Positions 8,700 through 36,745 of a stretch of DNA of 64,000 nucleotides are shown here, piece by piece. A model generated the notes under the pieces. That model did no database searches. It was not told where the DNA came from and was given only the letters and a program-made list of their open reading frames with translations. Every line of letters begins with the position of its first letter. The stretch's first letter is position 1. A program made the translations under genes and the position numbers. Origin of the DNA: Escherichia coli (GTDB lineage: Bacteria > Pseudomonadota > Gammaproteobacteria > Enterobacterales > Enterobacteriaceae); assembly GCF_050920415.1 (NCBI RefSeq), contig NZ_CP169309.1; one strand, 5' to 3'.

Positions 8700-9473
8700 A
8701 TGTCCGAGAATAAATTAAACGTTATCGATTTGCACAAACGCTACGGCGAACACGAAGTGCTGAAAGGGGTCTCACTGCAAGCGAATGCCGGTGATGTCAT
8801 AAGTATCATCGGATCGTCGGGATCGGGGAAAAGTACCTTTCTGCGCTGCATTAACTTCCTCGAAAAACCGAGCGAAGGATCGATCGTCGTTAACGGCCAG
8901 ACGATCAATCTGGTGCGCGATAAAGACGGTCAACTCAAAGTCGCCGATAAAAATCAGCTGCGCTTACTGCGCACACGCCTGACGATGGTATTCCAGCACT
9001 TCAATCTCTGGAGCCATATGACGGTGCTGGAAAACGTCATGGAAGCGCCGATTCAGGTGTTAGGCCTGAGCAAGCAGGAAGCGCGCGAGCGGGCGGTGAA
9101 GTATCTGGCGAAAGTCGGGATAGACGAACGTGCGCAGGGGAAATACCCGGTGCATCTGTCCGGTGGTCAGCAACAGCGTGTTTCCATCGCGCGGGCGCTG
9201 GCGATGGAACCGGAAGTTTTACTGTTTGATGAACCTACCTCGGCGCTCGATCCTGAACTGGTAGGCGAAGTGCTGCGGATTATGCAGCAACTGGCAGAAG
9301 AGGGAAAAACCATGGTGGTGGTGACTCACGAAATGGGCTTTGCTCGCCATGTTTCTACTCACGTCATTTTTCTCCATCAGGGGAAAATAGAGGAAGAGGG
9401 CGCGCCGGAGCAGTTATTTGGCAACCCGCAAAGCCCTCGTCTGCAACAGTTCCTTAAGGGATCGCTGAAATAA
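8700..9473 (+). CDS. hisP: histidine/lysine/arginine/ornithine ABC transporter ATP-binding protein
   Basis: 257-aa ORF with Walker [13 protein letters not shown] signature LSGGQQQR and Walker [12 protein letters not shown]. Confidence 0.95.
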
Positions 9474-9479
9474 TTCCCT

Positions 9480-9503
9480 CTCCGGTGGCTAACGCTGCCG
9501 GAG
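9480..9503 (+). terminator. probable terminator of the his transport operon
   Basis: Hairpin CTCCGG-N12-CCGGAG just after the hisP stop, followed by TATTTCA. Confidence 0.4.
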
Positions 9504-9668
9504 TATTTCATGGGGAATTTGCGAGTCCGCTTCCGCTGAAATGTAAAAGTTGCAGTCCGCTAAAAATACTTCTGAATTCGCTCTCCAAAGATAAAAACTG
9601 CCTGCTGCATTGGGTGTAAATCGTGGTTATTGTCGCGTCATCTTAAATTTGAGGGGTGACGGAACGCC

Positions 9669-10559
9669 ATGACAATATCGACAACTTCCACGCCGCATGA
9701 TGCGGTATTTAAATCTTTTTTACGCCATCCAGACACCGCGCGGGATTTTATTGATATTCATCTTCCCGCGCCGCTGCGCAAACTGTGTGATTTAACGACG
9801 CTCAAACTGGAACCAAACAGTTTTATTGATGAAGACCTGCGGCAATATTATTCCGACCTCTTGTGGTCTGTGAAAACGCAGGAGGGAGCGGGTTATATTT
9901 ATGTGGTGATAGAGCACCAAAGTAAGCCGGAGGAATTAATGGCTTTTCGCATGATGCGCTATTCCATCGCGGCGATGCAAAACCATCTGGATGCAGGCTA
10001 TAAAGAGCTTCCATTGGTGATCCCCATGCTATTTTATCATGGTTGCAGTAGCCCTTATCCTTATTCACTCTGCTGGCTTGATGAATTTGCCGAGCCTGCG
10101 ATAGCCCGCAAAATATATTCATCAGCATTTCCGCTGGTGGATATTACCGTGGTGCCGGATGACGAGATTATGCAACATCGCAAAATGGCGCTGTTGGAGT
10201 TAATTCAGAAACATATTCGTCAGCGCGATCTGTTGGGATTAGTCGACCAAATTGTTTCGCTGCTAGTTACAGGGAACACTAATGACAGACAGCTAAAAGC
10301 CCTGTTTAATTACGTATTACAAACGGGAGATGCCCAGCGTTTCCGTGCATTTATTGGTGAGATAACAGAACGCGCACCACAAGAAAAGGAGAAACTGATG
10401 ACCATTGCTGACAGATTACGTGAAGAAGGCGCAATGCAGGGCAAACACGAAGAAGCTCTGCGTATTGCTCAGGAGATGCTGGAAAAAGGATTTGACCACG
10501 AAGTCATCCTGACGCTGACCCGACTTTCACCAGACGACCTTATCGCGCAAAGCCACTAA
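9669..10559 (+). CDS. rpnB: recombination-promoting nuclease RpnB (transposase-like PD-(D/E)XK family)
   Basis: 296-aa [36 protein letters not shown] typical of the Rpn/YhgA-like family; no flanking terminal inverted repeats seen. Confidence 0.85.
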
Positions 10560-10606
10560 TCCTGTAACACCGGGAATTAACTGGCGGATGTTTGCAGTAC
10601 ACCACA

Positions 10607-11500
10607 TCAGTGAACAACATCCGCCAGCGCCTCTTCTAAATCGTACCAGCGAAACGCAAAACCCGCTTCTTCCAGCCGTTTAGGCAATGCTCGTTGTCCA
10701 CCTAATACCAGTACTGAAGATTCGCCCATTAACAGTCGAATAGCGGTCGCGGGGACGCGCAAAATGGCCGGGCGATGCAGCGCATGACCGAGCGCATGGG
10801 CAAATTGTTCATTGCGTACCGGGTAGGGCGAAACCATATTAAACGGCCCGCGCAGCTCGTTATCCAGCAGCCAGAGAATACCGTTGACCATATCATCGAT
10901 ATGAATCCAGGCCAGATACTGCCGACCGGAGCCAATCGGCCCGCCCAGGCCAAGACGAAACGGCGGCAGCATTTTACCGAGGATCCCGCCGTCCGGTGCC
11001 AGCACCACGCCGGTACGCAGCAGGCACACACGTGTTTTGTCGCTTTGCGCCCGACAGGCAATCTCTTCCCAACGAGCGCAGAGTTTATGGGTAAATTCGT
11101 TATGCGGCGGTTCCTCTTCAGTAACCACCACTTCACCTAAGTCGCCATAATAGCCCGTTGCCGAACCGGAAATGAGTACCGACGGCGGCGTGTCGCTGGC
11201 ATTAATTAGATCGACCAGTTTTTGCGTGATATTCCAGCGGCTTTGGCAGAGACGATCTTTTTGCTCGTGAGTCCAGCGTTTATCGGCAATCGGTTCTCCA
11301 GCCAGGTTGATTACCGCATCAACGCCATTGAGGTTGCTTTGATCTGCAAGCCCTTGCCATAGTGTCACCCGGGGGCCGAGAACGGAACTGGCTTTCTGCG
11401 GGTTACGTGTCACTACCGTGATTTGATGGCCCAGCTCCAGCAAACGTGGAATCAAATGGCGACCAATTAATCCCGTCCCTCCGGTGATCACTATGTTCAT
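10607..11500 (-). CDS. yfcH: epimerase-family protein YfcH (NAD-binding, SDR-like)
   Basis: 297-aa ORF with N-terminal Rossmann motif ITGGTGLIG. Confidence 0.88.
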
Positions 11501-11520
11501 GCAGCCTCCCGATATGGCGG

Positions 11521-11883
11521 TTAACGCTGCCAGCTTAAGGTCATGGATACCGAATCAGCGTAGCGCAGCGCGTGCAGTTTATCGATCTCTACTTCAGCAT
11601 ACGTTACCCAGTGATGTTCACGTGCGATATCGAGCACATCCTGAGTTAATTTCTCCAGCAAAGAGAAACGGTTATTCTCTACGTGCTGAATAATGTTTTT
11701 CGTTACGGTGCGATAATTCAGCGCATCGTTGATATCTTCGCTGGTGCGCGCTTTATCGGCGGGGTAGTGGATCGTCACGTTGATAACTATATCCTGACGG
11801 TTGTTAATTTCTTCTTCCTTAATTCCGATAAACGTACGTAAACGAAGGTTCTTTATACGAATAATAGCGGCAGGTTGTGCCAT
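11521..11883 (-). CDS. folX: dihydroneopterin triphosphate 2'-epimerase
   Basis: 120-aa [28 protein letters not shown], FolB/FolX fold. Confidence 0.93.
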
Positions 11884-11939
11884 TGCAGGTTCTCCGTTGT
11901 TTTACTTAGGATTAAATAATACACGAGAACCTGTTTCTG

Positions 11940-16249: not shown

Positions 16250-16281
16250 TAAAAAACCGGAAATAGTGACTATTTCCGGTT
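16250..16281 (-). terminator. intrinsic terminator downstream of pta
   Basis: On the minus strand: hairpin CCGGAAATAG-TCA-CTATTTCCGG followed by a U6 tract; preceded by a second hairpin CCGCAGC-N5-GCTGCGG (16290-16308). Confidence 0.65.
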
Positions 16282-35771: not shown

Positions 35772-36745
35772 GTTGGATATCACCGGAACTGATTGAGATC
35801 CTGCTGACCATCCTCAAAGCGGTGGTGATCCTGCTGGTGGTTGTCACCTGCGGGGCATTCATGAGCTTTGGCGAACGTCGCCTGCTGGGTCTGTTCCAGA
35901 ACCGTTACGGACCTAACCGTGTTGGCTGGGGCGGTTCGCTCCAGCTGGTCGCGGACATGATCAAAATGTTCTTTAAAGAAGACTGGATCCCGAAATTCTC
36001 GGATCGCGTCATCTTTACTCTGGCACCGATGATTGCCTTTACCTCGCTGCTGCTGGCCTTTGCGATTGTACCAGTCAGTCCGGGTTGGGTGGTTGCCGAC
36101 CTGAACATCGGGATTTTGTTCTTCCTGATGATGGCAGGTCTGGCGGTTTACGCGGTGCTGTTTGCGGGCTGGTCAAGTAACAACAAATACTCGCTGCTGG
36201 GTGCGATGCGTGCTTCTGCGCAGACCCTGAGCTACGAAGTGTTCCTCGGGCTTTCCCTGATGGGCGTGGTGGCGCAGGCCGGTTCATTCAACATGACCGA
36301 CATCGTTAACAGCCAGGCGCACGTGTGGAACGTCATCCCGCAATTCTTTGGTTTTATTACCTTTGCCATCGCGGGCGTGGCGGTGTGTCACCGTCACCCG
36401 TTTGACCAGCCGGAAGCCGAGCAGGAACTGGCGGATGGTTACCACATTGAGTATTCCGGCATGAAGTTCGGACTGTTCTTCGTGGGCGAATACATCGGGA
36501 TTGTGACCATCTCCGCATTGATGGTGACGCTGTTCTTCGGTGGCTGGCAAGGCCCGTTCTTACCGCCATTCATCTGGTTCGCGCTGAAAACCGCGTTCTT
36601 TATGATGATGTTCATTTTGATTCGTGCGTCGTTACCGCGTCCGCGTTATGACCAGGTAATGTCCTTCGGCTGGAAAATCTGTCTGCCGCTGACGCTGATC
36701 AACTTGCTGGTAACGGCGGCTGTCATTCTCTGGCAGGCGCAATAA
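35768..36745 (+). CDS. nuoH: NADH:quinone oxidoreductase subunit H
   Basis: 325-aa polytopic membrane ORF overlapping the nuoG stop. Confidence 0.95.

Follow-up and report, generated by a model that had tools for sequence, protein, structure and literature searches.

Transcripts that depend on Rho have been found to end precisely just after stable stem-loops lacking a U-tract (Dar & Sorek 2018, NAR 46:6797; PMC6061677). In that class, transcription terminates at a more distal site, and the tail is trimmed back to the structure by PNPase and RNase II. A stem-loop is also required by the collision-type bidirectional terminators described by the Liu laboratory (bioRxiv 10.1101/2022.10.23.513370). 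Here we describe an inverted repeat between the convergent genes rpnB and yfcH in a 64,000-nucleotide stretch of Escherichia coli DNA, the whole of which is referred to as the window. We propose that this repeat is probably the stem-loop that defines the stable 3' end of the Rho-dependent yfcH mRNA, with the tail of the transcript trimmed back to the hairpin. The hairpin is an ordinary kind of RNA-end element, already catalogued in genome-wide 3'-end tables, and not a new element.

The repeat search returned a left arm, CTGGCGGATGTT, and a right arm, AACATCCGCCAG, which are complementary at 12/12 positions (100%) across a 23-nt spacer. Together with the open reading frames, it confirmed the original prediction of a perfect repeat around the yfcH stop codon with its right arm in the 3' end of yfcH (Table 1). 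The stop codons of the two genes are separated by 47 nt. The right arm corresponds to yfcH codons 292-295 (L292-A293-D294-V295); the left arm is non-coding and begins 21 nt past the rpnB stop codon, and the centres of the two arms are 35 bp apart. The yfcH TGA, read on the minus strand, is situated in the loop, outside both arms. A 31-aa ORF at 10588-10683, starting in the left arm and running antisense to yfcH, is considered spurious.

Table 1. Features of the yfcH-rpnB intergenic region and its surroundings, in window coordinates.
Feature	Position	Strand	Description or basis
yfcH-mRNA hairpin 5' arm CUGGCGGAUGUU	10616..10627	-	doubles as yfcH codons L292-V295
Apical region, 23 nt	10593..10615	-	codons V296-H297, TGA 10607-10609, 14 non-coding nt
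yfcH-mRNA hairpin 3' arm AACAUCCGCCAG (minus strand)	10581..10592	-	non-coding; repeat search
yfcH mRNA steady-state 3' end	10571..10575	-	placed by homology from MG1655 2422633-2422637
Weak 3-bp outer helix, 3' strand UUC	10574..10576	-	pairs with GAG 10631-10633; minimum-energy folds
C-over-G, U-rich stretch of yfcH read-through RNA, antisense to rpnB	10356..10505	-	C/G ratio
yfcH CDS, 297 aa	10607..11500	-	RefSeq annotation of matching genomes; Pfam Epimerase + DUF1731
rpnB CDS, 296 aa	9669..10559	+	RefSeq annotation of matching genomes; Pfam Transposase_31 / YhgA-like
Direct repeat CTGGTGGAT inside rpnB	10134..10142	+	same as the initial 9 nt of the left arm, CTGGCGGAT

The number of such repeats expected by chance was estimated from shuffled 64-kb windows, counting perfect 12-bp inverted repeats whose loops measured 3-40 nt. 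The shuffled windows held 0.225 of these on average, with at least one in 15% of the shuffles. The repeat is thus only mildly unusual, and on sequence alone it is weak evidence. Two perfect 12-bp inverted repeats are present in the real window. The other one (AACCGGAAATAG, 16255-16266 / 16270-16281) has a 3-nt loop and an A-run before it, and is followed by a second small hairpin beside the end of a minus-strand gene, an arrangement that resembles a classical bidirectional terminator. For the arm pattern itself, about 0.44 chance matches are expected when up to one mismatch is allowed on both strands; a 12-mer one mismatch from the arm, CTGGCGGATGGT, is found twice on the plus strand (36428-36439 and 45156-45167), in addition to the arms.

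Folding of the repeat region is predicted to be stable on either strand relative to shuffles, with -27.7 kcal/mol and a z-score of -3.5 on the plus strand and minus-strand z-scores from -2.6 to -3.65. For the final 70 nt of the mature yfcH RNA, the folding energy is -26.8 kcal/mol (z -3.65) in the window and -28.0 kcal/mol (z -3.2) in K-12. The apical region shows partial pairing in the window allele, but its inner pairs are not conserved and it is the most variable part of the element. At the base of the stem, the minimum-energy models add the weak outer helix UUC/GAG, and with low confidence the mapped 3' end may be placed 1-3 nt past it. It should be mentioned that no U-tract follows the repeat on either strand. 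The tail of the yfcH strand reads UUAAUUCC in the window and UUAACUCC in K-12, and that of the rpnB strand reads CGCCUCUU. A scan for terminator and promoter consensus sequences made no call at the repeat. An Rfam scan of 9400-11900 at E<=10 gave no match there either, just two chance matches elsewhere.

The position of the yfcH 3' end has been mapped in two independent studies of E. coli K-12. Supplementary file 1 of Adams et al. 2021 (eLife; PMC7815308) lists 'primary' yfcH 3' ends at MG1655 2422637 and 2422635, which differ by growth condition. With the yfcH coding sequence ending at 2422601, the last pair of the stem is at 2422627, so that these ends are located 8-10 nt past the stem (AACAUCCGCCAG-UUAACUCC(CG)). 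The TRS study (Nat Commun 2023; PMC10687069) reports a 'Primary' yfcH terminus at 2422633-2422635 in its Supplementary Data 2-4, and the same tables give the yfcH hairpin itself as the structure tied to the terminus. By both studies together, the main 3' end of yfcH falls 6-10 nt past the stem. The ends were measured in K-12 and moved to the window by homology, the coordinates being converted via the yfcH coding sequence end at 2422601; the window is 94% identical to K-12 over 10400-10800. All of the experimental data come from K-12, and the Term-seq read counts for yfcH are low, about 1,500. The original prediction had suggested either a protein-binding site or an RNA stability element. An RNA end so close to the stem favours the latter, while no evidence was found for protein binding, and the 35-bp distance between the arms does not favour it.

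Transcription of yfcH continues beyond this end. In Supplementary file 2 of Adams et al. 2021 (PMC7815308), a region of Rho termination is listed on the yfcH strand at 2422836, which is approximately 10372 in the window, antisense to rpnB and 199 nt downstream of the mapped end. DirectRNA-seq reads upstream and downstream of this position were 179/18 in untreated cells and 93/123 with bicyclomycin, with a Rho score of 13.15 and p 2.1e-26 (PMC7815308). As bicyclomycin abolishes the downstream drop in reads, the polymerase transcribes through the hairpin once Rho is inhibited; as an intrinsic terminator the hairpin is not effective. The original prediction that it is not a classical intrinsic terminator is therefore upheld by this read-through as well as by the missing U-tract, the 23-nt loop and the lack of a call in the scan. 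The C/G ratio of the minus strand is 1.3-2.0 in 50-nt windows over 10505-10356, a stretch located past the hairpin and reaching to near the region of Rho termination, which taken singly is weak evidence. The ExcludonFinder study (NAR 2025; PMC12288877) includes yfcH-rpnB among 165 convergent MG1655 pairs with overlapping transcripts, consistent with yfcH RNA reaching the rpnB stop codon and beyond.

Other elements near the repeat were also recorded. A second, imperfect hairpin is found at about 10431-10468 on the minus strand, inside the rpnB antisense region (in K-12, GCAAU-AC-GCAGGGC...GCCCUGC-AUUGC). The TRS tables list an 'alternative primary' yfcH 3' end at the same place (MG1655 2422778), and the window allele has one more mismatch than K-12. 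Just past hisP, at 9480-9503, there is a classical intrinsic terminator, CTCCGGTGGCTAACGCTGCCGGAG followed by TATTTCATGG, which is kept in genomes without rpnB. Given its conservation, transcription of the his operon should not reach the repeat.

We propose the following scheme for the yfcH transcript. In the mRNA (minus strand), the repeat would fold into a stem of 11-12 pairs, with the last codons of the gene as the 5' arm and non-coding sequence as the 3' arm. RNA polymerase would read past the hairpin into the antisense strand of rpnB and be terminated by Rho approximately 100-250 nt downstream. Exonucleases acting in the 3'-to-5' direction may then strip the untranslated tail and halt a few nucleotides before the hairpin, leaving the end 6-10 nt after the stem, and the hairpin could thereby protect the half-life of the yfcH mRNA. 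With codons in the 5' arm and the stop codon within the loop, a ribosome that terminates there would be expected to open the stem, so that the hairpin would be present only on ribosome-free RNA. The window hairpin differs from that of K-12 at four positions (three in the loop, one in the innermost pair) and presumably behaves in the same way.

The comparable stability of the plus-strand fold (-27.7 kcal/mol, z -3.5) raises the question of whether the hairpin is a 3'-end element shared by both strands, which would also end or stabilize rpnB and the short rpnB-S RNA and may mark stalling of colliding polymerases. The listing of yfcH-rpnB as an overlapping convergent pair by ExcludonFinder (PMC12288877) fits such a role, as do the natural variants of the arms, most of which are compatible with G.U pairs on the plus strand: 97.2% of the cells are paired on the rpnB strand versus 89.6% on the yfcH strand. 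However, this asymmetry amounts to about 4-5 events versus 2, which is not significant and does not support an inference of the functional strand, and one of the events is a by-product of a deletion crossover described below. The original prediction had called for 3'-end mapping of both transcripts. The public Term-seq and RNAtag-seq data from K-12 provide the end of yfcH, but neither the Adams nor the TRS tables list an rpnB-sense 3' end near 2422570-2422600, although low expression of rpnB could mask one. In addition, the published class is Rho-independent, whereas the yfcH strand is strongly Rho-dependent here. We regard a bidirectional element as unlikely.

The element is single-copy: of 5426 complete genomes, 5356 carry it, each at a single site. 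The perfect 12/12 form is a minority allele; in K-12 and the majority of E. coli the sequence is GACATCCGCCAG, with a synonymous GTT -> GTC change in yfcH that results in 11 pairs plus a terminal C.A on the yfcH strand or U.G on the rpnB strand. In a comparison of yfcH loci from 80 species, the left arm was restricted to Escherichia, namely E. coli, the cryptic clades and E. whittamii. In yfcH of Citrobacter and Salmonella the coding arm CTGGCGGATGT is present too, and the right arm is thus ancestral coding sequence. In E. whittamii, two adjacent central pairs are lost on the yfcH strand; a longer, 5-bp outer helix, GAGGC/GCCUC, is present there and holds the fold at about -23 kcal/mol. It is noted that the assembly contig of E. 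albertii NBRC 107761 stops just before the right arm (...GACGAGGCG|).

The arms were aligned in 128 Escherichia sequences, 114 of them metagenome contigs, which represent 12 distinct alleles. They are almost invariant; the common polymorphisms affect the terminal pair, together with CTGGTGG in some genomes without rpnB, and all variants that disrupt internal pairs on both strands are singletons. At the 12 pairs, no compensatory (both-sided) change was seen on either strand, and five pairs never vary at this shallow divergence. About 7/24 columns are variable in the arms versus 21/44 in the loop and flanks, as counted by eye, and the difference is not significant. Without a both-sided change, and with arms that are not significantly less variable than their surroundings, the data do not demonstrate selection for pairing. 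As to the conservation of pairing in related genomes, on which the original prediction was to be judged, the evidence neither proves nor refutes it: the arms are kept within Escherichia, compensation is lacking, and other genera do not have the element.

These data weigh on both sides of the proposed function in yfcH mRNA. Several natural variants produce A.C or C.A mismatches on the yfcH strand, and compensation is lacking among the 12 alleles and 128 sequences. On the other hand, the repeat sits at the mapped end, the rpnB-less deletion allele described below retains the entire hairpin, and alleles or genera without the left arm have another hairpin after yfcH. In Klebsiella and Salmonella, where the left arm is missing, other hairpins or terminators directly follow the yfcH stop codon. 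In the nhaC-island alleles of E. coli, which also lack the left arm, a canonical bidirectional intrinsic terminator is found right after yfcH.

Could the repeat instead be a product of chance or mutation with no selected role, arising by template switching or by a rearrangement on the arrival of rpnB, at which exonucleases merely stall? The 0.23 such repeats expected per window, the youth of the element and its restriction to Escherichia would agree with such an origin, as would the lack of covariation, arms that are not significantly less variable than their surroundings, and the imperfect form in most strains. However, its position directly at the mapped mRNA end is not arbitrary, and only singletons disrupt internal pairs on both strands. 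Moreover, every other arrangement of the locus also has a hairpin right after yfcH, and the deletion allele kept this one. On balance, a mere by-product appears quite improbable, and a hairpin that sets the end of yfcH mRNA remains the preferred reading.

The gene next to yfcH varies among species and strains. rpnB adjoins yfcH in Escherichia only; in other genera the neighbour is a GNAT acetyltransferase gene, or hisP follows directly. In Citrobacter, Enterobacter, Kosakonia and others, the GNAT gene (169 aa, PF13302) begins approximately 20-80 nt after the yfcH stop codon on the same strand and is preceded by a conserved inverted repeat, for example GCCATTCCGGTGGTAAGGT...CCGGAATGGCGA. In E. 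coli GF131 and R32_14_1F, an island with nhaC and a trans-sulfuration/PLP enzyme abuts yfcH, replacing rpnB and hisP, and the C-terminus of yfcH is altered to LENVVQ* or LADVVHE*. A 62-nt deletion takes out the whole hairpin in one metagenome contig (L193), which may be a real variant or an assembly error; yfcH there ends in ...EEALD*, its TAG overlapping the complement of the rpnB stop codon.

The 3' part of rpnB, the RpnS region (10400-10560), is unusually diverse for E. coli. Over 10400-10800, 3/5424 genomes are at least 99% identical to the window and 827 are at 80-90%. A 12-nt (four-codon) indel separates RpnB alleles of 296 aa from those of 300 aa; Zhong et al. 2023 (PMC10400941) describe such indels in Rpn antitoxin domains.

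rpnB is absent in approximately 12% of complete E. coli genomes (about 670-740). In these genomes, homology to the window resumes exactly at 10581, and the residual spacer, TATTCATCAGCGTTTCCGCTGGTGGAT, matches the rpnB-internal segment 10116-10142 at 26/27 positions. The spacer is thus a fragment of rpnB, which implies that the 3' half of the gene was deleted between the direct repeats CTGGTGGAT and CTGGCGGAT, the latter at 10581-10589. A second deletion in the same genomes covers 9579-10115. The CTGGTGGAT repeat overlaps a perfect Chi octamer at 10133-10140. The crossover of the deletion accounts for the CTGGTGG left-arm variant of some of these genomes, and the hairpin is intact in the deletion allele. 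The left arm was also considered as an insertion boundary or target site of rpnB; this was rejected, as the rpnB-less allele keeps rpnB fragments and its breakpoint is a 9-nt direct repeat.

The same breakpoint bears on whether the repeat acts as a site in the DNA itself, be it by binding a dimeric protein as an operator, by extruding a cruciform, or by serving the RpnB nuclease in recombination or insertion. Two breakpoints do fall at the arms, that of rpnB loss at 10581 and the junction of the nhaC island near 10611-10616, and the arms are Chi-like (CTGGCGG). However, the first is explained by deletion between the 9-nt direct repeats, and the second simply falls at the end of the conserved yfcH gene. 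From textbook background, a half-site distance of 35 bp and a 23-nt spacer are ill-suited to an operator or to cruciform extrusion. Neither terminal repeats nor target duplications are defined for rpn genes (Zhong et al. 2023, PMC10400941), and rpnA, rpnB and rpnC lack homology in their 3' flanks. A DNA-level site is the least probable of the readings considered here.

With respect to these flanks, alignments in search of homology between the 3' sides of rpnA, rpnB and rpnC were unconvincing, and a 9-mer common to rpnC-panC and the rpnB flank, TAACTGGCG, was treated as a coincidence. Hairpins are likewise present within the short spacers of both of the other convergent rpn pairs of K-12. At rpnC-panC (locus L206, 3910-3940), a perfect 10-bp repeat, TAACTGGCGC/GCGCCAGTTA, is located 5 nt from the panC stop codon. 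At rpnA-bioH (locus L207, 4034-4060), the rpnA stop codon is spanned by a 10-bp repeat that is complementary at 9/10 positions, with AUUUCAAAA after it.

As to the origin of the left arm, it is conceivable, if very improbable, that it arose through fold-back repair at a break, as a short inverted copy of the final codons of yfcH, when an rpn gene replaced the ancestral GNAT gene, and that the hairpin now serves both transcripts and limits antisense transcription into the toxin gene rpnB. If such an origin were true and general, rpn genes would make their own 3'-end hairpins from neighbouring coding sequence.

The assignment of the hairpin to the end of yfcH mRNA would explain where the yfcH (folX-yfcH) mRNA ends and why the yfcH and rpnB transcripts overlap, and it offers an example of a gene whose own last codons form half of its 3' hairpin. 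Its significance is mostly one of annotation, as stem-loops without a U-tract at Rho-dependent 3' ends are an established class. The analysis has two mildly useful by-products: how rpnB was lost, and the Rho-terminated transcription that enters the rpnB toxin-antitoxin gene in antisense.

We have compared the yfcH hairpin with the known kinds of 3'-end structure. Like an intrinsic terminator, it is a hairpin that closes a gene, and the RNA ends 6-10 nt past the stem. In contrast to the 3-8 nt loop and 7-8 nt U-tract of such terminators, it has a 23-nt loop and the tail UUAAUUCC, and read-through is complete when Rho is inhibited. With REP/BIME elements it shares an imperfect palindrome after a gene and a presumed ability to block exonucleases, but it is without the REP consensus and is partly coding; this identity was rejected on the basis of one copy per genome (5356 genomes) and the lack of an Rfam match. 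The bidirectional terminators of convergent genes (Ju et al. 2019; RNAP-collision model) are similar in several respects, including the 47-nt spacer, a hairpin-encoding repeat shared by the two strands, the absence of an intrinsic-terminator sequence and the reported overlap of the transcripts. These terminators are Rho-independent, however, whereas the yfcH strand is strongly Rho-dependent, and only one of the two expected 3' ends has been mapped. The class of Dar & Sorek differs from yfcH in that here codons make up the 5' arm, the loop is unusually large (23 nt) and contains the stop codon, and the trimming is our proposal. In common with that class, yfcH has a stable stem-loop (-27 to -28 kcal/mol) directly upstream of the mapped 3' end, no U-tract, Rho-dependent read-through further on and a C>G region downstream.
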